Positions 778 through 35,504 of a stretch of DNA of 35,504 nucleotides are shown one piece after another (position 1 is the stretch's first letter; each line of letters opens with the position of its first letter). Made by a program: the position numbers and the translations under genes. This DNA is from a virus. The stretch lies in IMG/VR virus record IMGVR_UViG_3300021387_000081, positions 1 to 35,504 of that record. The stretch is one strand, 5' to 3'. Under the pieces are notes generated by a model that was given only the letters and a program-made list of their open reading frames with translations, had not been told where the DNA came from and searched no databases.

Positions 778-828
778 AGGGCAATTGAGCTCCGGTATCG
801 CCAGTACATTCAGCTGCCGAATGGTAAA

Positions 829-1179
829 ATGAATGGCAGCAGGAGTATAGGCGGCGGAAGTCGAAAGCTCTATCATCACGATCCGGATACCGGAGGTGGC
901 GGGAGCACGAAGAAAAGTGTTGACAAATCATCAGATGATGGTGTACAATATGGTAAAGAAGAAATCAAGAATGATTTCGATGGAAAACCATATACCTATC
1001 CTGAATTACATTTACCTAAGAAAGAATATGGCACTGTTATAAGGCAAATCGATGATAACTATGAATCTAAGTATAAAGGCAAGAGTATAGGCTTTCACAG
1101 TACGTCAAAATATACCTATAAATTTGAAATACGTGGATATAACGATTATAACATTTTTTCAAAATGGAAAAATGATTAA
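829..1179 (+). CDS. Leader-linker-variable domain module (type-1 leader). The conserved coding signal already starts at 778, in frame after the protease TGA
   Basis: Same frame as the protease. Codons 787-858 encode ELRYRQYIQLPNGKMNGSRSIGGG, matching portal residues encoded at 34278-34349. The C-terminal 75 aa are AT-rich and unrelated to the other cassettes. Confidence 0.55.
   Translation: MNGSRSIGGGSRKLYHHDPDTGGGGSTKKSVDKSSDDGVQYGKEEIKNDFDGKPYTYPELHLPKKEYGTVIRQIDDNYESKYKGKSIGFHSTSKYTYKFEIRGYNDYNIFSKWKND
920..949 (+). promoter_or_regulatory. Sigma-70-like promoter inside the linker codons (TTGACA-18-TACAAT)
   Basis: ttgaca at 920-925 and tacaat at 944-949. Flank aaaagtgTTGACAaatc matches the four other junction promoters. 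This is the weakest of the set. Confidence 0.45.
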
Positions 1180-1190
1180 GGGGTGATTAT

Positions 1191-1388
1191 ATGAATGATG
1201 AGTTTAAAATGCTTATAAAATCTGTTCCTGATACATATGAAGACTTTGAACGTTGGGTATTTCGAGCAGCCGAAACATATGAGGGATATGCAGAATATAT
1301 AATCAACTACTTAAAAGATCATCCAGATGCAACTACAAGTGATATAGCTGCTTATGAAGAGCCTTTTTTAAGGGAAAGAGCAGAATAA
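1191..1388 (+). CDS. Small acidic protein, candidate cognate partner or immunity protein of the upstream variable domain
   Basis: 65-aa ORF with SD aagggg 8 nt upstream. AT-rich like the preceding variable domain and directly followed by terminator T1. Confidence 0.55.
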   Translation: MNDEFKMLIKSVPDTYEDFERWVFRAAETYEGYAEYIINYLKDHPDATTSDIAAYEEPFLRERAE

Positions 1389-1395
1389 TCGAGTT

Positions 1396-1425
1396 ACCGC
1401 CCTCATTGAGAGCGGTTTTCTTATG
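1396..1425 (+). terminator. Intrinsic terminator T1 (family GCGGTTTTCTTATG)
   Basis: accgccctca/tgagagcggt stem followed by ttttcttatg. The tail is shared with T2, T3 and T4. Confidence 0.7.
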
Positions 1426-1493
1426 CCTAAAATACGCAAAACGCTCATAAAATGCGTATCTCATGCTTATGATACGCTCATAAAACGCAAAAA

Positions 1494-3773: not shown

Positions 3774-4123
3774 TGGAACTCAGTGAGATAAAATCAAAGC
3801 TTGACACGATAGGTGTTCCTGTAGCCTACATGATGTTCAGCAAACCACAGAAACTGCCGTTCATAGTGTACTATGAATCCGGTACGGACATCCGCGGAGC
3901 TGATACACTGGATCTCCTGCGCGAAACTGAGATAACAGTTGAAATGTACTCGGACAGAAAGCTGCCGGCTATTGAACGGCAGATAGAATCCCTTTTTGCG
4001 GACAGGGAGATAAAAAAGTCCGCAGATGTATATCTGAGCGAAGAGAAGATGCTGATGACTGCATTTTCTTTCGATACAATAATAAAAACAGGAGGAAATG
4101 AGAATGTCACATACACAGACTAA
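3773..4123 (+). CDS. Putative tail terminator/tail-completion protein
   Basis: 116 aa, start overlaps the preceding stop by 1 nt (TAATG, stop 3771-3773, ATG 3773-3775). Called from position between the neck genes and the major tail gene only. Confidence 0.5.
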   Translation: MELSEIKSKLDTIGVPVAYMMFSKPQKLPFIVYYESGTDIRGADTLDLLRETEITVEMYSDRKLPAIERQIESLFADREIKKSADVYLSEEKMLMTAFSFDTIIKTGGNENVTYTD

Positions 4124-4685
4124 AGAACTTAACCGCATACCTCTCGGCTCCATGGATTTCTACATCGTGGAATTCACCGGAGGAACTATCCCGGCGGACA
4201 ACGTCATTGAGACAGAAGCCAACATGATAGGACGTACAAAGAACGGTGCTACCGTCCGTTACAATGCCACATGGTATCTGGCTGAATCAGATGACGGAAA
4301 GGCCAAGAAGCGCAAGCTCACCGGTGAGAACGCTTCAATAGCCTACGGTAATATCACCTGGAACGGAAACACGCTGAAGAAGCTCATTGCCACAGCAAGA
4401 GTTACTGAGGCCGACGGCAAGCGCACCACTAAGATCGGCGGCATAACCAACGACGACGGAAAGCGCTATCTCATCCGCGGTGTACACAAGGACGCTGTTG
4501 ACGGAGATGTGAGGATAACCGGTGTCGGTGTCAACACTGGCGGCTGGGAGGCGGTATGGTCGCCCACACAGGAGACCGTGCTCAATCCTACTTTCGAGCT
4601 TGAACCCAAACTTGATGCTGACGGCACCCTTCTCATCCACGAAGAGGAGATAGTCGAAGCCGCTTCATCCGGAAATAATAATTAA
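4104..4685 (+). CDS. Major tail protein
   Basis: ATG 4104 lies 8 nt after GGAGG (an alternative ATG is at 4098). 193 aa, lies upstream of the chaperone pair and is followed by a terminator. Confidence 0.7.
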   Translation: MSHTQTKELNRIPLGSMDFYIVEFTGGTIPADNVIETEANMIGRTKNGATVRYNATWYLAESDDGKAKKRKLTGENASIAYGNITWNGNTLKKLIATARVTEADGKRTTKIGGITNDDGKRYLIRGVHKDAVDGDVRITGVGVNTGGWEAVWSPTQETVLNPTFELEPKLDADGTLLIHEEEIVEAASSGNNN

Positions 4686-14880: not shown

Positions 14881-14909
14881 TTGACAGAAAGCAAAATCTG
14901 GTATATAAT
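14881..14909 (+). promoter_or_regulatory. Perfect consensus sigma-70 promoter on the plus strand
   Basis: TTGACA, a 17-nt spacer and TATAAT with no mismatch. It points against the minus-strand operon. Confidence 0.6.
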
Positions 14910-16121: not shown

Positions 16122-17156
16122 TTACTCATTCGAGTTTGTGTCCGTTTTTGTGTCCGTTTTATCAATGATATTCATAAAAAACTCATCAACAGCATTATCG
16201 ACGAGCTTTCTTTCCGAGGAAAAAGTGTGCTGATAGACAGACTTCATGATATGAGGACTGCTCCAGCCGCCGCGCTCCATGGCGTACTTGTCGGGAATGC
16301 CGAGCATCAGCATAGTTGAAGCGTTCATGTGTCTGAGATCATGGAAGGTCATGTGAGCGATACCGTTGGACTGAAGCAGCCTTGAGAATCGCTTGTAGAT
16401 AGCCTGACCGCTGAGAACAGTGAAGTGTTCCTGTTCCTCCGGGAGACGGCTTATTAGTTCCATGATATAAGGCGAGAGACTGATCTGACGTGTGCTGTCG
16501 AAGGTCTTGGTAGAATCCTTGGTGATGTTCTGTCCTTCGACGGTCACGACAGTCTCATGGATAGTGAGGATATTGCCGTTCAGATCTGATCGCTTAGCAC
16601 CTCTGATCTCGGACATACGCATACCTTCCCACAGGGCAAGCATGCAGGGAAGTTCGATCTCAGATCCGATAACAGCAGCAACTACCTGTTCGGCAGGCGG
16701 GAGCTGCTTTATTTTTTTCTGCATCTTCGGGAGAGTCGTGTGCAGGACTGTTCCCGGAGAATAAGTGTTGAGTACGGAGACCAGGAGTCCGTGAGCATTT
16801 CTGACCGTCTTAGGCGAATAGGTCAGCGCCAGCATGTTCATGTGCTTCTGGACGTCGAGCTGAGTGAGCTTGCTGACCGGCAGCGGACACAGTTCACTGA
16901 GACAGTTCCTCCGGCATTTCCTGTATCCGTCGATAGTGGTCGGACTCAGGATGTTGACCTTGCTGTTGATGTAATCATCAATGCACTCACCGACTGTCCT
17001 GCTGTCGGCGTTTACTTTTTTGCCTCCGAGCCATTCCAGAGCGGCAAGCTCGGCTTCTCTTTTTGTAGGAGCCGTGAAGGACTGCCTTTTCCCTGTCTCG
17101 GGATCGGTCACTCTCACGCGGTAATTGCCGGACGGCAGCTTCTGTGCCTTTGCCAT
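16122..17156 (-). CDS. int: Tyrosine site-specific integrase
   Basis: The start MAKAQKLPSGNYRVRV follows aaaggag. The C-terminal HDLRH...GGWSS...Y catalytic pattern is present. The upstream 104 codons of the tracked ORF overlap the ImmA gene. Confidence 0.9.
   Translation of the reverse strand: MAKAQKLPSGNYRVRVTDPETGKRQSFTAPTKREAELAALEWLGGKKVNADSRTVGECIDDYINSKVNILSPTTIDGYRKCRRNCLSELCPLPVSKLTQLDVQKHMNMLALTYSPKTVRNAHGLLVSVLNTYSPGTVLHTTLPKMQKKIKQLPPAEQVVAAVIGSEIELPCMLALWEGMRMSEIRGAKRSDLNGNILTIHETVVTVEGQNITKDSTKTFDSTRQISLSPYIMELISRLPEEQEHFTVLSGQAIYKRFSRLLQSNGIAHMTFHDLRHMNASTMLMLGIPDKYAMERGGWSSPHIMKSVYQHTFSSERKLVDNAVDEFFMNIIDKTDTKTDTNSNE
16137..16160. repeat. Tandem 12-nt repeat tgtgtccgtttt x2, candidate arm-type sites inside the int 3' end
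   Basis: Encodes TDTKTDT at the int C-terminus. Same core as the pair at 15919-15942. Confidence 0.5.
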
Positions 17157-17172
17157 GGTATCACGCTCCTTT

Positions 17173-17748
17173 CTATTTCCTATGCTCGGAAATATAGTTT
17201 TCAAACTGCTCAAACACACGCTTTTCGAGTTCGGATGCGAGAAAGGCATCTCTTTTGTAAAGCACCCGCATACGCTCTGCGCGAATACGGGCATCTTCAA
17301 GCGAGATGCTGCAAACTCTTGCAATATCGTCGGTGGAATGCAGTCCAAGTCCCCAGAGTACGCAGGCAGGTGCAAGAATACCCATTGCGAAGCGTTCGGC
17401 TTGATACTCTTCAGGAGCTTTCGGATCCGCTCTTGTACCTGTGAGCCGTGTGTGAAGTCCGCTGTCAATCAGATGCCCGAAGAAGATATGCCCCAGCTCA
17501 TGACCGATAGTGAATCGCTGGACTTCAAGAGGATCCGCGCCGTTCAGAAAGATGTTGTACCTCCCGTCACGGAGAAATACGACTCCACGCTCATCGGCAG
17601 AGAAGTAACCCGAACCGCAGTCCTTGTAAAGACCGATACCGTTCGTCCGACAGATATCGTGAAAGCTGACAGGGAGTCGGTCAACGCCGTTGTCAAGGAG
17701 GAACTGCCAAGCTGCATCGCGGGTGTTGGTGTAGAGATGATAGTTCAT
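17173..17748 (-). CDS. ImmA/IrrE-family metalloprotease (anti-repressor protease)
   Basis: 191 aa containing HELGHIFFGH (HEXXH). It overlaps the upstream HTH repressor gene by 4 nt. Confidence 0.85.
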   Translation of the reverse strand: MNYHLYTNTRDAAWQFLLDNGVDRLPVSFHDICRTNGIGLYKDCGSGYFSADERGVVFLRDGRYNIFLNGADPLEVQRFTIGHELGHIFFGHLIDSGLHTRLTGTRADPKAPEEYQAERFAMGILAPACVLWGLGLHSTDDIARVCSISLEDARIRAERMRVLYKRDAFLASELEKRVFEQFENYISEHRK

Positions 17749-20082: not shown

Positions 20083-20295
20083 ATGTCATTCGCAGAAAAC
20101 GTAAAGTGCCTCAGAAAGGCAAAGGGCATCACACAGGCTGAGCTCGCCGCAATGGTCGATATCTCACAGGCCATGGTTGCCCAGTACGAAAAAGGACTGA
20201 AACTGCCGACGATCGTAACAGGCGTGGAGCTTGCGAAGCGTCTCGGCACAACATGCGAAGAGCTGGTCTTCGGTCAGAAAGGAGCAAGCACATGA
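20083..20295 (+). CDS. Cro-like XRE-family HTH regulator
   Basis: 70 aa containing LRKAKGITQAELAAMVDISQAMVAQYEKG. SD aaaggagg. Confidence 0.8.
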   Translation: MSFAENVKCLRKAKGITQAELAAMVDISQAMVAQYEKGLKLPTIVTGVELAKRLGTTCEELVFGQKGAST

Positions 20296-28660: not shown

Positions 28661-28743
28661 AATATCCCCCCGGAGGTCAGATTTTTTTTGAAATGCTCCG
28701 GACATCCACCGACGCCCCCCTCTGAAAATAAAATATTCCCTAA

Positions 28744-29214
28744 ATGAAAGGACGTGATACTGTGGCGAGACCGGCAATGAGTGCGAAAACTACGTCAAAG
28801 CACCTTACGAAGGCGGAGGCTGAGGCAAAGTCCTCGACCGAAGAACTGCTCAGAGGCAGGGCAGACAGGCTGCGTCCGCCTAAGTATCTGACGACTGCGC
28901 AGAAGAAGATCTTCAAGTTCATCGTCCGGGAACTGGAGGGCAGCGGCATCCTTGGCAATCTGGACATCTATGTGCTGACCGAGTGCTGCATCGCGCTTGA
29001 CAGGATGCAGGAGATAGAGAGCAGGATCAATCAGGATCCGGTGCAGCTCAGCAATGACAAGCTGCTGCAATCGAAGGACAGATATACGAAGTCCTTCTTC
29101 CGCTGCTGCAATGAGCTGTGCCTGAGTCCTCAGAGCAGGGCGAAAATGGGCAACCTCAACTTGCAGGCGAAGGAAGAGAATCCGCTGCTGAAGGTGCTGA
29201 GCGATGATGAATAA
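28744..29214 (+). CDS. terS: Terminase small subunit (P27 family)
   Basis: Contains P.YLT..QKKIFKFIV.EL...GILGNLD...L...C.ALDR, typical of P27-family small subunits. Confidence 0.8.
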   Translation: MKGRDTVARPAMSAKTTSKHLTKAEAEAKSSTEELLRGRADRLRPPKYLTTAQKKIFKFIVRELEGSGILGNLDIYVLTECCIALDRMQEIESRINQDPVQLSNDKLLQSKDRYTKSFFRCCNELCLSPQSRAKMGNLNLQAKEENPLLKVLSDDE

Positions 29215-29839
29215 AGACTGGTTCATAGATTACGCGGAACATGCGGTCAGAGTGATAGACATCGAGACACGCTGGTATGAGCTCAGAGGCTGGATAACAA
29301 AAAACGGAAGGCATATCCTGATTGGCGATGATGAGGGTGGCAGCTCCACCAGCGGAGCAGGCAGAAAAGCTGCCAAAAAGGTTGACAAAGCCGGGGAAAG
29401 TGGTATAATTGAAGAAAAGACAGGAGAAACGGCGGGAACTGATGTGCATAAAGTTGGAAAGATAGATGTTGAAAAGTTTGAAACTATTGCAAATGGAAGA
29501 ATTCTCACCGACGAGGTGATCATAACAGATAATCGGATCGAACACATTATTGAGCGAAGAGGTCAGAAGTTTTATGACGATTTTAAAGGCTATTTTCCTG
29601 AAATAATAGAAGCACCCGACTATATATTCAAAGATGATATGGACAATACAGCTATTGTGTCTAAATCATATAGCCATAAGGGAAAAACAGTAAACTTAGT
29701 TCTTAGGCTCGTAGTTGAAGGGGAAAACCCAAGCTATAAGAATTCTATACTAACTGCAATTGGTGAGAACGAGAAAAGATTTGCTCAACGTTTACGCAAT
29801 AACGTTCCTGTGTATAAAAAAGTTGACAAATCAGAATAA
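29204..29839 (+). CDS. Type-2 leader, Gly/Ser linker and PBECR-like (barnase-EndoU-colicin E5/D-RelE fold) nuclease domain
   Basis: 211 aa. The leader is WFIDYAEHAVRVIDIETRWYELRGWITKNGRHILIG. The C-terminus ITDNRIEHIIERRG...PEIIEAPDYIFKD..NTAIVSK...VNLVLRL resembles phage PBECR domains. The gene sits between terS and terL. Confidence 0.7.
   Translation: MMNKDWFIDYAEHAVRVIDIETRWYELRGWITKNGRHILIGDDEGGSSTSGAGRKAAKKVDKAGESGIIEEKTGETAGTDVHKVGKIDVEKFETIANGRILTDEVIITDNRIEHIIERRGQKFYDDFKGYFPEIIEAPDYIFKDDMDNTAIVSKSYSHKGKTVNLVLRLVVEGENPSYKNSILTAIGENEKRFAQRLRNNVPVYKKVDKSE
29219..29325 (+). repeat. 107-nt direct repeat (leader coding), partner at 31762-31868
   Basis: 9 mismatches by eye. Five fall in the codons for ELRG and all five are synonymous. 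Confidence 0.9.
29382..29409 (+). promoter_or_regulatory. Extended -10 consensus promoter inside the linker codons (KKVDKAGESGII)
   Basis: TTGACA at 29382-29387, a 16-nt spacer ending in tgg, and TATAAT at 29404-29409. Confidence 0.55.
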
Positions 29840-29851
29840 ATGTGATATAAT
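29823..29851 (+). promoter_or_regulatory. Extended -10 consensus promoter at the 3' end of the PBECR-like ORF (KKVDKSE-stop)
   Basis: TTGACA at 29823-29828, a 17-nt spacer ending in tga, and TATAAT at 29846-29851. Confidence 0.6.
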
Positions 29852-29857
29852 GAAGGT

Positions 29858-29980
29858 AAGATAAGAGTAGGTTATCAGAGGTGGTAAATTTCGTAGCGAC
29901 CACACGCCGCTGGTAACGACAGGGAGTAATCCCGAGAGATGCAGGAGAATGCTACGCCTGCCTGATAACCACTCTTTCCA
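29858..29980 (+). ncRNA. Candidate structured RNA between terS-side cassette and terL
   Basis: A 15-bp long-range helix (29863-29878 with 29962-29976, one bulged A) encloses hairpins 29881-29903, 29922-29933 (GUAA loop) and 29941-29961. Two hairpin loops carry complementary hexamers cgtagc and gctacg. Confidence 0.45.
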
Positions 29981-29981
29981 G

Positions 29982-30014
29982 ACCGCTTCGAGAAATCGGA
30001 GCGGTTTTCTTATA
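29982..30014 (+). terminator. Intrinsic terminator T4 (family GCGGTTTTCTTAT)
   Basis: accgcttcga/tcggagcggt stem with GAAA loop, followed by ttttcttata. Confidence 0.7.
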
Positions 30015-30041
30015 CCCGGACGCAGAAAGGAGCTGACAGCA

Positions 30042-31742
30042 ATTGACATAGTGAAGAACAGCAGAGCTTATAAATATGCTCTGTGGTGTACCGAGCCGGA
30101 CAATCACTATGTCGGGCGGTACATAAAGAAGCAGGCGGTGATCTGGCTGGAGATAGCGGACGGTCAGAGCGATGAAGCATATGTCTGTGAGAAGCGCTGG
30201 AAGAAGATAACGAAGCTGCTGAAGATCATCATGCACCCTGACCTCGGACATTCGATGTATGAGGGACTTGAGGACTACGCAGTTTTATTCATATATGCCT
30301 TGTTCTGTACAAAGCGCCGGAGCGACAGTCTCCGGTACTACGAGACCGGGCTTTTAGAGATCGCGAGGAAGAACTTCAAGACGTTCACCTCAGCGGTCAT
30401 TTTTATTATCGGACTGCTGACAGAGCCGAAGTTCAGCCGCTTTTTCAGTGTGGCACCGGATCTGAAACTCTCCAGTGAATTGCAGGTGGCTATCAAGAAG
30501 ATAATCAAGTCGAGCCCCTGTCTGGCGGACGAGAAGGTGTTCAAGCTGCTGCGGAAGGAGATACGCTGCAAGCTGACTGACTCTGAGTATACTCCTCTTG
30601 CTTACTTACAGGACAAGATGGACGGAAAGCTTGCAAATATGTTTCTTGCTGACGAGTGCGGAGCAATGGACAACTATCCCATAGAAGCCATGCGATCCTC
30701 ACAGATCGTGCTGAGGGAGAAGCTTGGCATCATCATCTCTACCCAGTACCCCAATGACAACAATGCTATGCTGGAAGAGGTTGACAACGCCAAAAAGATC
30801 CTTGACGGACTACGGCATGGAAGGGTGTTCGCACTGCTCTATGAGCCGGATGATGAGTTCAAGACCGGCGATGCGTGGATGACATCGGACACAGCGCTGT
30901 ATCAGGCTAATCCGGTGGCGTACGCCCATGAATACGTCATGGATGACCTGAGGGCGAAGCGTCAGGCTGCCATAGATTATGAGAACAAGCGGGAGAACTT
31001 CCTGTGCAAGCACATGAACATCCTCTACAAAGGACTCGGAGTTGAGGGATTTGTCGAGATAACGAAGGTAAGACTGTGTAAAGTTCCGGCGGATGCTGAG
31101 TTCTGGAGGGGCAGACAGGTATATATCGGGCTTGACCTCTCTCAGACCGATGACAATACCTCGGTCGCAATGGTGACATATGATGCGGATGAGGATATGA
31201 TATACGTCAAGGTCTGGGGATTCATCCCGGCTGACCGCATCGACGAGAAATCCCAGCGCGAAAAGGTGGATTACAAGAAGCTCATAGCCGCAGGAGAATG
31301 CTTTGCCTGCGGTGATGAGGTCATTGACTACGGCTTTGTGGAGCGGTTCATACAGTCGCTGCCGGAGCAGTACGGCGTTGAGATAGTTCAGCTGGGCTTT
31401 GACCGGTACAATGCTATCTCCACAGTACAGAAGCTGGAAAGCGGAGAGGATCCGATCGAGTGCGTTGAGATTAGACAGCACAGCAGCGTCTTACACAGAC
31501 CAACGAAGCTGCTGAAAGAACGTATCCTGAGCCGTAAGCTGCGGTATGAGGAGAATCATATGCTGGAGATCAACTTCCAGAACGCCAGATGCACCGAGGA
31601 CACGAATCTGAACAAGTATGTCAACAAGAGAAAGTCCGCCGGCAAGGTGGATATGGTGGTATCTGTCATAAACGCGCTGTATCTCTTGCAGGTGAATGTG
31701 CTTGACAGCATGGAGCAGGGGTTCGGGTGCCAGATCATATGA
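30042..31742 (+). CDS. terL: Terminase large subunit (start uncertain: ATT 30042 or GTG 30051)
   Basis: A Terminase_1-like sequence over about 560 aa. The tracked 5' extension contains terminator T4. SD aaaggag lies 9 nt before ATT and 18 nt before GTG. Confidence 0.85.
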   Translation: MDIVKNSRAYKYALWCTEPDNHYVGRYIKKQAVIWLEIADGQSDEAYVCEKRWKKITKLLKIIMHPDLGHSMYEGLEDYAVLFIYALFCTKRRSDSLRYYETGLLEIARKNFKTFTSAVIFIIGLLTEPKFSRFFSVAPDLKLSSELQVAIKKIIKSSPCLADEKVFKLLRKEIRCKLTDSEYTPLAYLQDKMDGKLANMFLADECGAMDNYPIEAMRSSQIVLREKLGIIISTQYPNDNNAMLEEVDNAKKILDGLRHGRVFALLYEPDDEFKTGDAWMTSDTALYQANPVAYAHEYVMDDLRAKRQAAIDYENKRENFLCKHMNILYKGLGVEGFVEITKVRLCKVPADAEFWRGRQVYIGLDLSQTDDNTSVAMVTYDADEDMIYVKVWGFIPADRIDEKSQREKVDYKKLIAAGECFACGDEVIDYGFVERFIQSLPEQYGVEIVQLGFDRYNAISTVQKLESGEDPIECVEIRQHSSVLHRPTKLLKERILSRKLRYEENHMLEINFQNARCTEDTNLNKYVNKRKSAGKVDMVVSVINALYLLQVNVLDSMEQGFGCQII

Positions 31743-31749
31743 GGTGGAT

Positions 31750-32385
31750 ATGGATAATAATTGGTTCATGGACTACGCGGAACATGCGGTCAGAGTGATA
31801 GACATCGAGACACACTGGTATGAATTACGCGGCTGGATAACAAAAAACGGAAGGCATATACTGATTGGTGAAGAAGGCAGTTCTTCCGGCGGAGCAGGCA
31901 AGAGTATTGACAAATCTGCGAAAAGTGGTATAATAAAATCAGGAGCGGTGAGTGGTGCATTATCTCCTGCCAGCAAAGAAGCACAGGCTCATGCTGAGCA
32001 ATACTATGAGTCTGTTCGTAAAATGAAAACAGATGTAAAAAACATCTCAAATAATACCGGCTTTAGTGAAAGCGACATTTTGCAAATAAAGAATCATGTA
32101 TTCATAGAAGAACATGATTTGGGCGGAGACGTCCCAGAGCGTTTTTATCCCAATTATGCTATGGCTCAATCATGGCAAAGGCTTATTGAGGGTAAAAACA
32201 TCCAGAAGCACGATATTACACTGCTTCATCACGAAAAAATGGAAAGCGATTTGATGAAGAAGGGCTTATCTCAGATAAAAGCTCATAGTATATCTGAGAA
32301 AAAGTTTAATTATGCTAAAGAAAGTAGGGAGTATTATGCTGAGATTAATAAACATAGCGATAGGACTAAAAACAATCGAAGCTGA
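31750..32385 (+). CDS. Type-2 leader, Gly/Ser linker and an unrecognised C-terminal domain
   Basis: 211 aa. The leader is WFMDYAEHAVRVIDIETHWYELRGWITKNGRHILIG. The C-terminal region ...IKNHVFIEEHDLGG..PERFYPNYAMAQSWQRLIEGKNIQKHDITLLHHEKMESDL has no homology to the other cassettes. ATG 31750 follows gaggtgg. Confidence 0.7.
   Translation: MDNNWFMDYAEHAVRVIDIETHWYELRGWITKNGRHILIGEEGSSSGGAGKSIDKSAKSGIIKSGAVSGALSPASKEAQAHAEQYYESVRKMKTDVKNISNNTGFSESDILQIKNHVFIEEHDLGGDVPERFYPNYAMAQSWQRLIEGKNIQKHDITLLHHEKMESDLMKKGLSQIKAHSISEKKFNYAKESREYYAEINKHSDRTKNNRS
31762..31868 (+). repeat. 107-nt direct repeat (leader coding), partner at 29219-29325
   Basis: See the partner repeat. A 40-nt block tacgcggaacatgcggtcagagtgatagacatcgagacac is identical in both. 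Confidence 0.9.
31907..31934 (+). promoter_or_regulatory. Extended -10 consensus promoter inside the linker codons (KSIDKSAKSGII)
   Basis: TTGACA at 31907-31912, a 16-nt spacer ending in tgg, and TATAAT at 31929-31934. Confidence 0.55.
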
Positions 32386-32584
32386 TTATATCCCTGAAAA
32401 TAGTGATAAGTCAGCACATATAACGCTTGATATAAAAACAAGGGATTATACTGCCGAGAGTATCAAAGAATTCGGTTCAATGTATGGCAGAATGGCTGCA
32501 AACGGGCTTATAAGGACCCTTGATGAGCTAAAAAGCGGCAAGAGGAAAGAAATTCCCGAAGAAAGACTTGTTATGTGGTATTAA
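32336..32584 (+). CDS. 82-aa protein overlapping the 3' end of the upstream variable domain, candidate cognate partner
   Basis: ATG 32336 lies 5 nt after agggag and overlaps the upstream gene by 50 nt. AT-rich. Confidence 0.5.
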   Translation: MLRLINIAIGLKTIEADYIPENSDKSAHITLDIKTRDYTAESIKEFGSMYGRMAANGLIRTLDELKSGKRKEIPEERLVMWY

Positions 32585-32604
32585 TACCTAAGGTGGGAGG
32601 ATTA

Positions 32605-32721
32605 ATGAAAGTTAAGTACACTGGTAAAACAAGTTTTCTTGTTCTGACAAACGGAAAGATATATGATGTCATTTCTGTCGAAAAAGGTTGGTACAGAATC
32701 AAAGACGACAAAGGTGCTTAA
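32605..32721 (+). CDS. 38-aa short paralogue of the ORF at 34721-34882
   Basis: MKVKYTGKTSFLVLTNGKIYDVISVEKGWYRIKDDKGA compared with MKVKYIGKQYLDTAFEKDKIYEVISVEKGWYRIMTELDEDYLFPPECFEIVEE. SD ggtgggagg. Confidence 0.45.
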   Translation: MKVKYTGKTSFLVLTNGKIYDVISVEKGWYRIKDDKGA

Positions 32722-32811
32722 AGCAACTAAAAAAGGTGAATATCGTGATAACGAATACCGAACGGTAGTAAATAAATTCCTTGATAATCAGCAGAAAGGT
32801 GGGCTTTTTGA

Positions 32812-32922
32812 ATGGAAGAAATGAATGTAGTTCTTGACGGATCAAATAAGGAAGGCTCTGAGAGACTTGCTGAAATGATCAAAAGACTTGAGGAAGAAAA
32901 GAAAAAAGATAAGACCGTCTGA
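32812..32922 (+). CDS. 36-aa charged peptide (speculative)
   Basis: SD aaaggtggg lies 8 nt upstream. The stop lies inside the T3 stem. Confidence 0.3.
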   Translation: MEEMNVVLDGSNKEGSERLAEMIKRLEEEKKKDKTV

Positions 32923-32944
32923 GAGATCAGGCGGTTTTCTTATG
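32914..32944 (+). terminator. Intrinsic terminator T3 (family GCGGTTTTCTTATG)
   Basis: accgtctga/tcaggcggt stem with loop gaga, followed by tttcttatg. Confidence 0.7.
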
Positions 32945-32983
32945 CCTATATTAAAACGCGAAGTGAAGTAAACAACGCTTGAA

Positions 32984-33030
32984 AGCATTTGTGACCGGCA
33001 CCAATGTCGGCTGCAAGTGCTGTTTTTATA
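32984..33030 (+). promoter_or_regulatory. Conserved extended hairpin plus U-tract, copy C (upstream of portal)
   Basis: agcatttgt (32984-32992) pairs with gcaagtgct (33013-33021). Inner stem is ccggca/tgtcgg, followed by gtttttata. Confidence 0.65.
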
Positions 33031-33047
33031 TCCAAACCACGAAAGGA

Positions 33048-34724
33048 GTGGTCAAAATAGGACTTTTCAGACGAAAAAAGCGGCAGGAAATAAGGGCGGA
33101 TACAGCTCAGAACGGCGAAAACACCATACTGACGTTCTTCGGACTGACCGGAGAACTTACGCGGGAGGCTGCGCTGAGCATACCGACGGTATCAGCCTGC
33201 ATCGGCAAGATAGGGGAGACCATATCGCGGCTGCCGGTGAAGCTTTACAGGAAGGATGAAGAGCAGGTCACGGAGATATCCGACGATGACCGGCTGAAGC
33301 TGCTCAACGGCAGCACCGGCGACACTCTCAGCACTGTTGACATGTGGAAAGCAGCGGTGGAGGACTACTACCTCGGGCGCGGAGCATGGATATACGTCAA
33401 CAGCGACGGTCTGAGTGTCCGGAGCCTGCACTATGTGGACAGCCGGAACGTGAGCATCATGTGCAACAATGATCCGATATTCAAGGCATTCAGAGTGCAG
33501 ATAAACGCGCAGAACTATTATGATTTCCAGTTTATCAAGCTGCTGAGGAAGACGCGGGACGGCTACACGAACATCCCGTTGCAGGAGGAGGCATCCTCGG
33601 TACTTTCGGCAGCGTGGAACGCTCTGAAGCTGGAGAACATGATGAACTCCAACGGCGGCTGCAAGCCGGGCTTCCTGAAAGCGAAGAACAGGCTCTCGGA
33701 TGCGGCGATAGCAGCGATCAGGGAAGGTTACCAGAAGGTCTATGACAACGAGCAGAAGCGTGACAAGATAATCGTGCTGAATGACGGTGTTGACTTCGAG
33801 GCGATATCCTCAACGGCTGCGGAGCTCCAGATGAACGAGAATAAGAAGACCAACAGCATCGAGATCTGCAAGCTGTTCGGCTTCCCTCATACGGTCATTG
33901 ACGGCGGAGCATCCGATGACGACAACAAGAAGTTCATTTCGGCGGTCATATCGCTCCTGAATCAGATCGAGACAGAGCTGGACAACGTTCTCCTGCTTGA
34001 ATCCGAGAAGGAGCAGGGGTATTACTGGGCGTTTGATACCAAGGAACTGACACGCGGCAGTCTTCTTGAACGTATGCAGGCTTATGAGATAGCCAAGCGG
34101 AACAACATCCTGCAGGTGGATGAGATCCGCCGGGAAGAGGACTATGAGCCTCTCGGCTTCAACTATATCACCCTCGGTCTTGCTGATGTTCTCCTTGATC
34201 CTGTTACTATGGAGGTCTATACCCCCAATACCGGACAGACAAAGAACCTTGTTACCGGTGAGGAACGGGCACTTACAGAGCTGAGGTACCGCCAATATAT
34301 CCAAGGTCCTGACGGAAAGATGCAGGGGAGCAGAAGCGTAGGCGGAGGAAGAGCGACGAAAAAGGTTGACAAATCCAAAAAAACTGATATAATAAAATTA
34401 GAGGATATTGAGGTCGGAAAGTCACTTGGAGCAAAGGCTAAAAACTATGACATTATGGATTTGGAAACGGGTGAACATTTTAACCTTGTTGAAAGGACCA
34501 GTTTGCAAGATGTTGAGGTCTTTGCTGGAAAGGGCGTTAAATCTGAGTTCCGAAAAGCTGATAAATATGCTAAAAAATACGGCGGTAAAGCCAAAGATTG
34601 GCAACACGCTAAAGGCACAGGAACTGTAGATTATTACGGTGAAGGGCGAAAAGCTGAATTACACTGGGCACAGTGTGAAGGTATAGGAAAACACGATTTT
34701 TTCATAAAGAGGTGGTTGGAATGA
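33048..34724 (+). CDS. Portal protein (HK97 family) with a roughly 130-aa C-terminal leader-linker-toxin-like extension (start uncertain: GTG 33048 or ATA 33057)
   Basis: The portal core includes ALSIPTVSACIGKIGETISRLPVKLY. After ELRYRQYIQGPDGKMQGSRSVGGG comes an AT-rich domain VGKSLGAKAKNYDIMDLETGEHF...WQHAKGTGTVDYYGEGRKAELHWAQ...FFIKRWLE, which resembles C-terminal toxin domains seen on MuF/gp7 head proteins. Confidence 0.85.
   Translation: MVKIGLFRRKKRQEIRADTAQNGENTILTFFGLTGELTREAALSIPTVSACIGKIGETISRLPVKLYRKDEEQVTEISDDDRLKLLNGSTGDTLSTVDMWKAAVEDYYLGRGAWIYVNSDGLSVRSLHYVDSRNVSIMCNNDPIFKAFRVQINAQNYYDFQFIKLLRKTRDGYTNIPLQEEASSVLSAAWNALKLENMMNSNGGCKPGFLKAKNRLSDAAIAAIREGYQKVYDNEQKRDKIIVLNDGVDFEAISSTAAELQMNENKKTNSIEICKLFGFPHTVIDGGASDDDNKKFISAVISLLNQIETELDNVLLLESEKEQGYYWAFDTKELTRGSLLERMQAYEIAKRNNILQVDEIRREEDYEPLGFNYITLGLADVLLDPVTMEVYTPNTGQTKNLVTGEERALTELRYRQYIQGPDGKMQGSRSVGGGRATKKVDKSKKTDIIKLEDIEVGKSLGAKAKNYDIMDLETGEHFNLVERTSLQDVEVFAGKGVKSEFRKADKYAKKYGGKAKDWQHAKGTGTVDYYGEGRKAELHWAQCEGIGKHDFFIKRWLE
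34366..34393 (+). promoter_or_regulatory. Extended -10 consensus promoter inside the portal linker codons (KKVDKSKKTDII)
   Basis: TTGACA at 34366-34371, a 16-nt spacer ending in tga, and TATAAT at 34388-34393. Confidence 0.55.
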
Positions 34725-34882
34725 AAGTCAAATATATAGGTAAACAGTATTTAGATACAGCTTTTGAAAAAGACAAAATATATGAAGTTATTTCGGTTGA
34801 AAAAGGCTGGTATAGGATAATGACTGAGCTTGACGAAGATTATCTTTTTCCACCTGAATGCTTTGAAATCGTAGAAGAATAA
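34721..34882 (+). CDS. 53-aa small protein, candidate cognate partner, paralogue of 32605-32721
   Basis: ATGA overlap with the portal stop. SD agaggtgg. Confidence 0.55.
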   Translation: MKVKYIGKQYLDTAFEKDKIYEVISVEKGWYRIMTELDEDYLFPPECFEIVEE

Positions 34883-34945
34883 AGAAAACAAGCGTAATCT
34901 ATAATTCTAAGGGCAACTTCCTCACGTTTGAAAGGGAGTGAGCAT

Positions 34946-35212
34946 ATGTGTAAACTTTTTGATGAATGGGCATCAGAGATTGAGATGTTTTGTCAGAAAA
35001 ATGATCTCAGCTTTGACAAGGCAAAGACACTTTCGCAGTGTTGGGGAAAAGACGATCTTATCTTGCAGTACTACGATAAAGAAAAGGGGAAAAACGGACT
35101 GCTCGATGAAACACCTATGCCTGTTGTTCTCTGGATAAAACGTGATAAGAATGGAAATCTTTCATTTGAAAAAACTGAGCATACTGAAAAATACCTTGGA
35201 AAAGTTTCCTAA
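34946..35212 (+). CDS. 88-aa hypothetical protein (cassette cargo)
   Basis: ATG 34946 lies 7 nt after agggag. It is followed directly by terminator T2. Confidence 0.6.
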   Translation: MCKLFDEWASEIEMFCQKNDLSFDKAKTLSQCWGKDDLILQYYDKEKGKNGLLDETPMPVVLWIKRDKNGNLSFEKTEHTEKYLGKVS

Positions 35213-35221
35213 TACTTCAAA

Positions 35222-35251
35222 ACCGCCCTCACTGAGAGCGGTTTTCTTATG
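35222..35251 (+). terminator. Intrinsic terminator T2 (family GCGGTTTTCTTATG)
   Basis: accgccctca/tgagagcggt followed by ttttcttatg. It differs from T1 at one loop base. Confidence 0.7.
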
Positions 35252-35274
35252 TCCATTTGAAGGAGGTGAGGAGA

Positions 35275-35504
35275 ATGGACGAGAAAGCCTTACAGATAGT
35301 CAGAGATTATATATTTGCACATCTCGACAAGACGGATACTGTTCCGCCTTTTGATGTCTATATGGTCTGGAAGTGCAAAGCCTTGCAGAACTGGAAGTAT
35401 CTTATCTCCAGTACGCTGTGCGACGGTATGTACTATGAGCTGACATACAACGGCGACAAGAAGGAATGGTATCTCGACGCTTACAAGAAGTTCGAGAATG
35501 TTGT
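35275..35504 (+). CDS. Small conserved phage protein (79 aa in total; continues at 1-120)
   Basis: ATG 35275 follows aggaggtgag. Translation MDEKALQIVRDYIFAHLDKTDTVPPFDVYMVWKCKALQNWKYLISSTLCDGMYYELTYNGDKKEWYLDAYKK resembles a widespread head-module hypothetical family. Confidence 0.75.
   Translation, partial: MDEKALQIVRDYIFAHLDKTDTVPPFDVYMVWKCKALQNWKYLISSTLCDGMYYELTYNGDKKEWYLDAYKKFENV
35398..35504. repeat. Terminal overlap identical to 1-107
   Basis: See feature 1-107. Confidence 0.95.

Follow-up and report, generated by a model that had tools for sequence, protein, structure and literature searches.

Consensus sigma-70 promoter sequences in the linker codons of effector cassettes in a rumen phage genome

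The sequence analyzed is the DNA of IMG/VR virus record IMGVR_UViG_3300021387_000081, positions 1 to 35,504 (the window). In its packaging and head module, virion proteins are extended in frame by variable C-terminal effector domains. The linker codons between the constant and variable parts contain the consensus of a bacterial sigma-70 promoter. The cassettes are probably self-contained units of an effector and a partner, and the partner is probably expressed from this promoter, which is at the same time coding sequence. Five features of these loci were observed directly: the motif and its anatomy, its conservation at the DNA level, the pairing of effectors with partners, the terminators, and a break in base composition.

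The promoter consensus used here is TTGACA, a spacer of 16-18 nt, and TATAAT. An extended -10 is defined as TGn directly before the -10. The sites in the window are as follows.

29382..29409, + strand: junction promoter P-B1, TTGACA-N16-TGgTATAAT, read in frame as VDKAGESGII.
29823..29851, + strand: promoter P-B2, TTGACA-N17-TGaTATAAT, overlapping the final codons (KKVDKSE) of the open reading frame (ORF) ending in PBECR2, together with its TAA stop.
31907..31934, + strand: junction promoter P-C, TTGACA-N16-TGgTATAAT, read in frame as IDKSAKSGII.
34366..34393, + strand: junction promoter P-D, TTGACA-N16-TGaTATAAT, read in frame as VDKSKKTDII.
920..949, + strand: weak junction promoter P-A, TTGACA-N18-TACAAT, lacking the TG and with its -10 in a different codon register (GVQY).

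A first-pass annotation of the window had reported five extended -10 promoters, one at every cassette junction. All five were found on the + strand where it had placed them. The sites at 29382, 29823, 31907, and 34366 each match 12/12 hexamer bases and carry the TG. The site at 920 is not an extended -10, since GTG occupies the three bases before its TACAAT. The junction assignment holds for four sites and fails for 29823, which lies at the PBECR2 stop codon and precedes a small RNA (sRNA) gene. The common flank aaaaa(g)gTTGACAAATC proved to be approximate only; GGCAAGAGTA is found upstream of 31907, and the flank of 29382 reads TTGACAAAGC.

The pattern TTGACA-N15-19-TAnAAT has two further matches in the window, at 14881 (+) and 20053-20025 (-). 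Both lie in the integrase and regulator region, which suggests that they are the phage's own control promoters of the same type. Chance, or recent common ancestry of duplicated linkers without selection, is scarcely credible as the source of the motif. The cassettes and their linkers are clearly related by descent and recombination. However, the window contains 7 matches against 0.14 expected, and 0/100 shuffles reach 7. The motif is also found in three leader contexts unrelated to one another, as well as in a separate phage lineage that comes from another habitat, and its 14 consensus bases are kept while the spacer and flanks have heavily diverged.

Conservation was compared between the DNA and the peptide using a table of junction variants. 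The table was gathered with a regular expression that requires the hexamers; judging from the anchored samples described below, this excludes about 1 junction in 30. The 44 unique DNA variants encode 34 different decapeptides. The first motif codon is GTT, ATT, or CTT (V/I/L). The second is GAC in all variants; GAT makes up 49% elsewhere in the same ORFs. The third is AAA, AAG, or AAT (K/N). Further along, the residue before G/D/A/V is S, T, P, L, D, or N with a codon ending in T throughout, and the next residue (G, D, A, or V) is encoded by GNT without exception. The residue pairs over TGn are SG, SD, TD, PD, LD, DD, DA, and NV, all encoded NNT GNT. The codon after GNT is ATA or AAA (I/K), never ATT or ATC, and the last is ATA, ATT, or ATG (I/M). 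The TG upstream of the -10 is present in 43/44 variants. Amino-acid changes are thus confined to the bases left free by the promoter consensus, and the bases fixed by the consensus are frozen at any codon position.

Synonymous sites follow the same division. The five third-codon positions inside TTGACA, TG, and TATAAT have one deviation in total, and the third positions outside the consensus vary in 11/11 cases with 3-28 minor alleles. Selection on the peptide alone, combined with local codon usage, would lead 0.31 of the 44 variants to spell the consensus, a figure that is illustrative and not a P value because the variants were selected by the regular expression and are related by descent. 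The first-pass annotation had read the peptide motif as translated hexamers and its apparent conservation as conservation of the promoter. Both claims agree with the codon readings, which are xTT GAC Axx and GnT ATA ATx. The substitution pattern argues that selection acts on the DNA and not on the peptide, with the consensus bases alone under purifying selection.

The motif can also be read in other registers, namely LTNKSASAKI (locus L008, position 1994), SDLTKSENSVKL (locus L266), and VDKSSDDGVQY (window, 920). These three junctions belong to one effector family and one partner family. At 29823, and in four portal loci described below, the motif lies partly past a stop codon. A spacing of 16-18 nt between the hexamers is kept across the other frames and the stop codons, as RNA polymerase requires and a reading frame forbids. 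That the K-K-V-D-K-S..G-I-I peptide is itself functional, as a prohead-protease cleavage site or a capsid-targeting linker with the promoter-like DNA as a by-product, is therefore very improbable. Its position in a G/S-rich linker makes processing plausible, and the A-rich KK codons upstream of the motif are also fairly conserved. The number of decapeptides, the choice of residues before G/D/A/V, the other registers, the untranslated portions, and the synonymous sites frozen inside the hexamers and drifting outside them all stand against it, and the codon analysis largely refutes it.

Relatives were gathered by means of flanking-protein anchors. The motif was not used in this step, so that ascertainment would not decide the answer. 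With the small leader protein as anchor, the motif is at the leader/effector boundary in every relative of at least 50% identity. With the portal as anchor, 20/24 portals have a C-terminal extension, and in 19/20 of these a perfect motif coincides with the junction. In the remaining extended portal (L266) the sequence is TTGACA-N17-TGtTAAACT, in its different frame. One further portal (L274) has lost its cassette, and a KVDK scar is left. With MuF as anchor, which samples an unrelated gut phage lineage, a perfect motif is present in 56/56 loci, between the MuF domain and five effector types. The junctions equivalent to 920 in loci L267, L016, and L004 also have a perfect motif.

In four of the 19 motif-bearing portals (L278-L281), the portal ORF ends at a TAG within the spacer; the promoter is intact and the effector frame goes on. 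This allele (for example L279, 3263-3290, GVDKS*YDDIIKHK..) is identical in four contigs from different samples. The TAG could be a nonsense allele or a site of read-through.

A scan of viral contigs with TTGACAA-N12/13-TGnTATAAT served as a control. Among the generic perfect extended -10 promoters that were listed (n=140), 3 are within a long ORF in the sense direction, and the same leader/effector junction accounts for 2 of them. A viral scan with AAAAAGGTTGACAAA was kept for control use only, being far too generic, with ordinary intergenic promoters among the matches listed.

The junctions between MuF and PBECR2 extend this picture. Eight sequences representing the PBECR2-anchored loci have boxes resembling TTGnnA-N16/17-TGnTAnAnT at this junction, one of them with a weaker -10. 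Across the loci (L339-L359), boxes of the form TTGnnA-N16/17-TGnTA[TC]A[AC]T lie approximately 60-90 nt upstream of the PBECR2 match. The peptides under them are very different (IAKAIDSGII, IAKQVDSDTM, IAMEAGSDIM, VDKEGKADIL, IEKTSKFDTI, and VAKVSQSDTM). Because boxes are carried under such different peptides, embedded promoters are probably broad among MuF effectors.

The cassettes consist of the following features. Folding energies and z-scores are given for the terminators, and the partner ORFs marked SD are led by a Shine-Dalgarno (SD) site.

29204..29839, + strand: ORF with the small leader (MMNKDWF..ELRGWITKNGRHILIG), a G/S linker, and a C-terminal PBECR2 RNase-like effector.
29871..29969, + strand: skipping-rope sRNA (Rfam RF02924), 51.1 bits against a gathering score of 36.7, E=1.7e-9.
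29980..30013, + strand: terminator T2, -18.6 kcal/mol, z -4.8, followed by UUUUCUUAU.
31750..32385, + strand: the small leader again (second copy), fused with an unrelated effector domain whose family is unassigned.
32336..32584, + strand: partner ORF of 82 aa (MLRLINIA..), SD, overlapping the effector end; candidate immunity gene.
32605..32922, + strand: displaced material, comprising a partner ORF of MKVKY type that is truncated, what is left of the 3' end of a JAB-like effector, and a 36-aa partner.
32912..32945, + strand: terminator T3, -17.8 kcal/mol, z -5.0.
32979..34724, + strand: portal with a C-terminal extension (ELRYRQYIQGPDGKMQGSRSVGGG, linker, effector); open frame, start uncertain.
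34721..34882, + strand: partner ORF of 53 aa (MKVKYIGK..VISVEKGWYRI..), SD.
34895..35212, + strand: 3' remnant of a displaced "GHTHPG" effector (..NSKGNF..FERE*) and an orphan partner ORF, by comparison with L003 1650-1965.
34946-35212, + strand: the orphan partner ORF, 88 aa (MCKLFDEW..).
35219..35252, + strand: terminator T4, -12.9 kcal/mol, z -4.6.
778..1179, + strand: effector cassette (RAIELRYRQ.., linker, effector), in frame after the prohead protease TGA (775-777).
1191..1388, + strand: partner ORF of 65 aa, SD; the same effector-family pairing is present in L266 and L008.
1391..1427, + strand: terminator T1, -11.5 kcal/mol, z -2.7.

In each case a constant part (portal, small leader, protease, or MuF) is joined to one of many C-termini, and the switch between them is sharp and located at the motif. 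The homologues of the small leader have differing C-termini, and the portal relatives have at least eight different C-terminal effectors. PBECR2 (Pfam PF18810, E=1.2e-8, aa 90-205 of the 29204..29839 ORF) is the only Pfam assignment among the variable domains of the window. The constant part of the portal frame matches Phage_portal (E=9e-44, aa 69-388). Effectors of the relatives include JAB-like HNHPxG domains and a domain containing HExxH. A Pfam search of effectors and partners gave mostly no match.

Across the loci, at least seven effector families each have their own co-varying, SD-led downstream partner family. The small ORFs downstream had been reported with SD sites, and these were found. 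The SD-led start of the 82-aa partner is also called in the identical locus L012. The MKVKY-type 53-aa partner is always paired with the effector type of the portal, including in the unrelated MuF phage. One partner is a Cys_rich_CPCC protein (PF14206); "CPCC" was not found in the accessible text of Zhang et al. (2012, PMC3482391), and the family is not citable from there as a described immunity protein. The toxicity of the effectors and their neutralization by the partners are presumed roles, and the partners are putative immunity factors.

The first-pass annotation had the units ending at terminators T1-T4. A terminator scan with strict criteria found none, and folding revealed all four hairpins, each with UUUUCUUAU after it, at energies of -11.5 to -18.6 kcal/mol with z from -2.7 to -5.0. 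The terminator after the partner has the form ACCGC..GCGGTTTTCTTAT. The reported break in base composition is likewise present, with GC of approximately 0.50-0.57 in the structural genes against 0.32-0.40 in the cassettes, an overall fall from near 0.52 to 0.36.

An entire cassette is common to this portal and to the gut-phage MuF, and consists of the promoter, the effector (signature K.(E/K)DI..GKS.GAKAKNYDI), a partner of MKVKY/MTIKY type, and the terminator. The unit of exchange is therefore the cassette, including the promoter at its 5' edge. The displaced JAB-like remnant (KVLKATKKGEYRDNEYR..FEWKK) and its 36-aa partner (MEEMNVVL..) are both intact in L002 and L017. At 32605-32922 and 34895-35212, ends of displaced effectors occur with orphan partners, the classic cassette-replacement footprint of polymorphic toxin loci. 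Together with the truncated MKVKY-type partner, they point to serial cassette replacement at the loci of the window.

Exchange of this kind raises the possibility that the conserved DNA is primarily a homology patch, like the VENN or PxxxxDPxGL regions, with its likeness to a promoter secondary or unused. Where loci share a leader and differ in effector, homology ends exactly at or after the -10, and where they share an effector and differ in leader, it starts at the motif. The repeated replacements and the L274 deletion scar, which ends in KVDK, fit the same idea. However, recombination needs contiguous identity, and the spacer is the most variable part of the motif. Only the hexamers and the TG are fixed, at fixed spacing, a pattern characteristic of contacts with RNA polymerase. 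The motif also persists at the PBECR2 stop, before the sRNA, where there is no exchange boundary. As the primary role of the sequence, a homology patch is improbable. The two roles are compatible, and the homology patch is partly a complement to the promoter.

Translation signals after the promoter bear on which product is made. The first-pass annotation had stated that no variable domain has a well-placed in-frame start after the promoter. In the four cassettes of the window and in most relatives, the promoter is not followed by any in-frame ATG, GTG, or TTG that has an SD at the correct spacing. The statement does not extend to one effector family of the relatives, MTISSI..GHTHPG (L003 1233, L002 7982, L262 4316), which has a conserved in-frame SD and an ATG approximately 23 nt after the -10. 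This effector may itself be translated from the junction transcript.

The main rival explanation is that the embedded promoter mainly expresses the effector domain together with the partner, as a stand-alone module of the toxin-antitoxin or addiction type. The start in the MTISSI..GHTHPG family speaks for it, as does the placement of the promoter before the effector-coding part and not immediately before the partner gene. A precedent is Salmonella Rhs, in which the toxin made from the P2 promoter has a CTG start codon (PMC7043789). Against this are the lack of such starts in the window and most relatives, and the conserved PBECR2 promoter, which is located after the domain. Stand-alone effector expression is considered unlikely, although it is the strongest of the alternatives.

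The site at 29823 provides a second view of promoter and partner. It is effectively intergenic and precedes a bona fide sRNA gene; the skipping-rope RNA starts 20 nt downstream of it, and T2 then follows. A search anchored on the PBECR2 protein gave 21 loci (L339-L359) at 38-45% identity, with several different MuF-type N-terminal parts (six by sequence reading). All 20 PBECR2 loci put through Rfam have a skipping-rope RNA, which begins 30-45 nt past the PBECR2 stop. Two of the 20 (L350 and L351; 2914-3223) have three tandem copies, which recall orphan immunity gene arrays or type III antitoxin repeats. All 9 distinct upstream sequences examined at the PBECR2 loci share the layout of the window, TT[TG]ACA-N17-TAnnnT across the stop codon; they have the stop within TTTACA-N17-TAnnnT, where codons for L-Y-K make up the -35.

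The reverse test was a scan for the core sequence, which gave 73 sites with the skipping-rope signature. A PBECR2-like ORF lies no more than 750 nt upstream in 56 of these. The other 17 comprise 6 without upstream sequence and 11 remaining sites, several of which follow another effector/partner pair or RNA copy, as does the orphan copy in L003. Where the two occur together, skipping-rope is always downstream of PBECR2, on the same strand, and behind a promoter that overlaps the PBECR2 stop (29426-29969 in the window). The 29823 site was also considered as a relic of a deleted junction, on account of ATAATG microhomology to L003; this was dropped, as every PBECR2 locus examined has a promoter there.

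The PBECR2/sRNA layout gives independent support for a partner driven from a promoter within an effector ORF. A further suggestion from it is that the PBECR2 RNase-like domain has skipping-rope as its RNA partner (immunity factor, antitoxin, or cofactor). In type III toxin-antitoxin systems, the RNA directly binds and inhibits its RNase partner, and the RNase processes the RNA. Binding or inhibition of this kind is conceivable for PBECR2 and skipping-rope, and the evidence for it is genomic linkage. The likeness to a type III system such as ToxIN consists of an endoRNase-like protein, an adjacent structured and sometimes tandem small RNA, and a terminator. Unlike in those systems, the order is reversed, with the RNA downstream and under its own promoter; skipping-rope is a complex fold and not a set of short repeats, and PBECR2 is a putatively virion-delivered domain. 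The skipping-rope report of Weinberg et al. (2017), as far as its accessible text goes, describes a "compelling association" with nearby proteins. A literature search found no paper linking PBECR to skipping-rope; the Weinberg supplement, which names the associated proteins, lay outside that search.

Each prediction of the promoter reading that was open to computation was borne out, and a mechanism can be proposed from these observations. Each cassette would be a transcription unit spliced in frame behind a virion protein (small leader, portal, or prohead protease, and MuF in other phages). In order, the unit would contain a promoter for the host sigma-A/sigma-70 polymerase, an effector stretch that in this window has no start codon of its own, the SD-led partner gene or genes or the skipping-rope sRNA, and an intrinsic terminator. 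Late transcripts would read through T1-T4, and ribosomes would translate the promoter DNA as the linker K-[KS]-[VIL]-D-[KN]-S-x-x-x-[GDAV]-I-I of a fusion protein destined for the capsid. Packaging of the effector and its injection are likewise predictions. Host RNA polymerase starting at the embedded promoter would give a short transcript that ends at the cassette terminator and yields the partner protein or sRNA only, because the effector part has no start codon.

Partner expression would then take place in the lysogen and right after genome entry, separately from the late operon. Expression from a repressed prophage is expected under this proposal. A conserved operator has no place in spacers this variable, in agreement with constitutive firing. 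Transcription from the embedded promoter would be kept off the late genes by the terminators together with a second conserved hairpin. The promoter would be the only constant sequence beside a swappable effector/partner pair, so that any incoming partner would be expressed. The same 30-50 nt are probably also the crossover point for cassette exchange.

Several points weigh against partner expression from a dual-coded promoter. The evidence for promoter activity and its timing is the consensus match and the conservation. Ahead of the partner ORF, the junction transcript would include 250-450 nt of effector-coding RNA that is not translated, an odd arrangement for a pure immunity promoter. The MTISSI..GHTHPG start described above allows the effector itself to be made, and the site at 920 is a weak one. 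In the PBECR2 cassette the junction promoter is perfect, although the sRNA partner has a promoter of its own. The 44 junction variants are not independent trials. Most partners have no Pfam match, and "immunity" is assigned to them by position and pairing.

A broader form of the proposal is more tentative and is given somewhat less than an even chance. Here the 28-nt promoter is a universal "plug" of horizontally exchanged effector/partner morons, the motif is nothing but translated promoter, and skipping-rope is a dedicated partner of PBECR2. The cassettes would join in frame to MuF, the portal, the small leader, or the protease (through TGA read-through) across unrelated gut and rumen phages. 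Skipping-rope, an orphan structured RNA class since 2017, would be expressed from the promoter over the last codons of PBECR2.

The cassette behind the protease is separated from its virion protein by a stop codon. The in-frame layout of protease, TGA, and cassette is found in four diverged loci (the window, L267 4854, L016 3989, and L004 4058). The frame after the TGA starts with RAIELR.., RAAELR.., or RQFLELR.., and there is one in-frame indel among the loci. Programmed TGA read-through may produce a minor protease-effector fusion. No suppressor tRNA is encoded, as the only tRNA in the window is tRNA-Met(CAT). The 920 cassette was also considered as an orphan module, which was dropped because the four loci have the same cassette in frame behind the protease TGA. 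A related arrangement is seen in L262 (approximately 4090-4220) and L263 (approximately 3870-3998), where a small lipoprotein-like ORF (..MLLKACVLLFISLTLCNSC..EPDE*) ends in TGA and is followed in the same frame by a linker, a junction promoter, and an effector. This is possibly another case of read-through, or an unfused cassette.

A second hairpin, AAGCATTTG..CAAGTGCTATTTTTAT, is present at 128-178, 1492-1545, and 32980-33036, with -18.6 to -24 kcal/mol. It lies just upstream of the protease, capsid, and portal genes and has compensatory changes in its inner stem. The relatives carry similar GCAC..GTGCTATTTTTA hairpins. This element could be a second terminator or insulator, or a control element of late transcription. 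Late transcription must read through all of the terminators and conserved hairpins.

The ends of the window are identical over 94 bases (1-94 and 35411-35504), so that the sequence is circularly closed or terminally redundant. Because the two ends overlap, the window is a complete, circularly permuted phage genome. The phage is a rumen phage and is temperate, since it encodes an integrase and a helix-turn-helix (HTH) regulator. The cassette-bearing region is the packaging and head module, with the small terminase, large terminase, portal, prohead protease, and capsid genes. The located genes are as follows.

16122-17468, - strand: integrase.
20083-20295, + strand: HTH regulator.
28744-29214: small terminase.
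196-777, + strand: prohead protease gene, with its TGA stop at 775-777.

The open frame of the large terminase extends back through T2 and the sRNA (29949-30060). Candidates for its start lie behind an SD, AAAGGAG, at approximately 30027-30033; these are ATT at 30042 and, in frame, GTG at 30051. A megablast search of 28700-35504 against GenBank phages gave no match. A scan of genome contigs for relatives gave two loci only. One is in Ruminococcus flavefaciens SAb67, a prophage at roughly 63-75 kb of contig NZ_UETD01000004, and is the closest cellular relative found. The other, a 38%-identity match in a Chloroflexota metagenome-assembled genome, lacks the junction motif and was treated as unrelated. 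The remaining relatives are from rumen-type metagenomes.

If the proposal is correct, these junctions would offer a clear natural example of dual coding, with a "conserved peptide motif" fixed by promoter constraint and not by protein function. This would be a warning for the motif-based annotation of polymorphic toxins. The proposal would also explain how a temperate phage with virion-delivered toxic effectors in a silent late operon keeps the antidote on. Making the partner, in one case a small RNA, while the late genes are silent is the probable purpose of a promoter in linker codons. In practical terms, TTGACA-N16-TGnTATAAT in frame after a virion protein is a sequence handle for effector/immunity cassettes in gut and rumen metagenomes. 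The placement of skipping-rope beside a defined protein partner, PBECR2, makes the function of this RNA directly testable.

Known systems share parts of this design. Colicin immunity promoters lie inside colicin genes. Phage morons, a concept of Hendrix and Juhala, are extra DNA between late genes with their own promoter and terminator and a deviant composition, and are expected to be expressed from the prophage. The cassettes have a promoter and terminator of their own, lie between phage genes, and deviate in composition. Classical morons are separate genes, whereas these cassettes are fused in frame to a structural gene and their promoter is also translated.

The internal P2 promoter of Salmonella Rhs was mapped by 5'RACE to a conserved region beside PxxxxDPxGL (Starsta et al. 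2020, PMC7043789). It is likewise a sigma-70 promoter inside a toxin gene, directly before the constant/variable junction and beside many C-terminal toxins, and it drives the part encoding the C-terminal toxin and immunity protein separately from the full-length gene. The PxxxxDPxGL peptide has a function of its own, whereas the peptide here looks like a pure by-product of the promoter. The Rhs toxin is translated from the internal transcript, whereas no internal start is present in this window; and Rhs there is a type VI secretion system (T6SS) protein, whereas a phage virion protein is involved here. In the Vibrio cholerae T6SS, promoters inside vasX, tseL, and vgrG-3 keep immunity on when the T6SS is silent (Miyata et al. 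2013, PMC3857813). Immunity is thus transcribed from within the effector gene, and cells are immune while the weapon operon is silent. Unlike the promoters described here, those lie away from any recombination junction, fall short of a perfect consensus, and are not known to determine a conserved peptide.

Closest in setting are the MuF polymorphic toxins and polyvalent proteins (Jamet 2017, PMC5576092; Iyer 2017, PMC5512222; Zhang 2012, PMC3482391). As in the present loci, a virion head protein (MuF or portal) carries variable C-terminal effectors, including PBECR, with immunity genes downstream. Fusions of PBECR with MuF and with the portal are already described in the accessible passages of these papers, which contain no description of the junction promoter, the protease-linked cassettes, or the small-leader cassettes. 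The word "promoter" is absent from PMC5576092 and PMC5512222, and none of its three uses in the accessible passages of PMC3482391 concerns the junction. The logic of the promoter can thus be regarded as already known from Rhs P2, the T6SS, colicins, and morons. What appears to be new is the setting in effector cassettes of phage virion proteins, the placement precisely where constant and variable parts meet, the near-perfect match to the consensus, and the recognition of a "junction peptide motif" as translated promoter.

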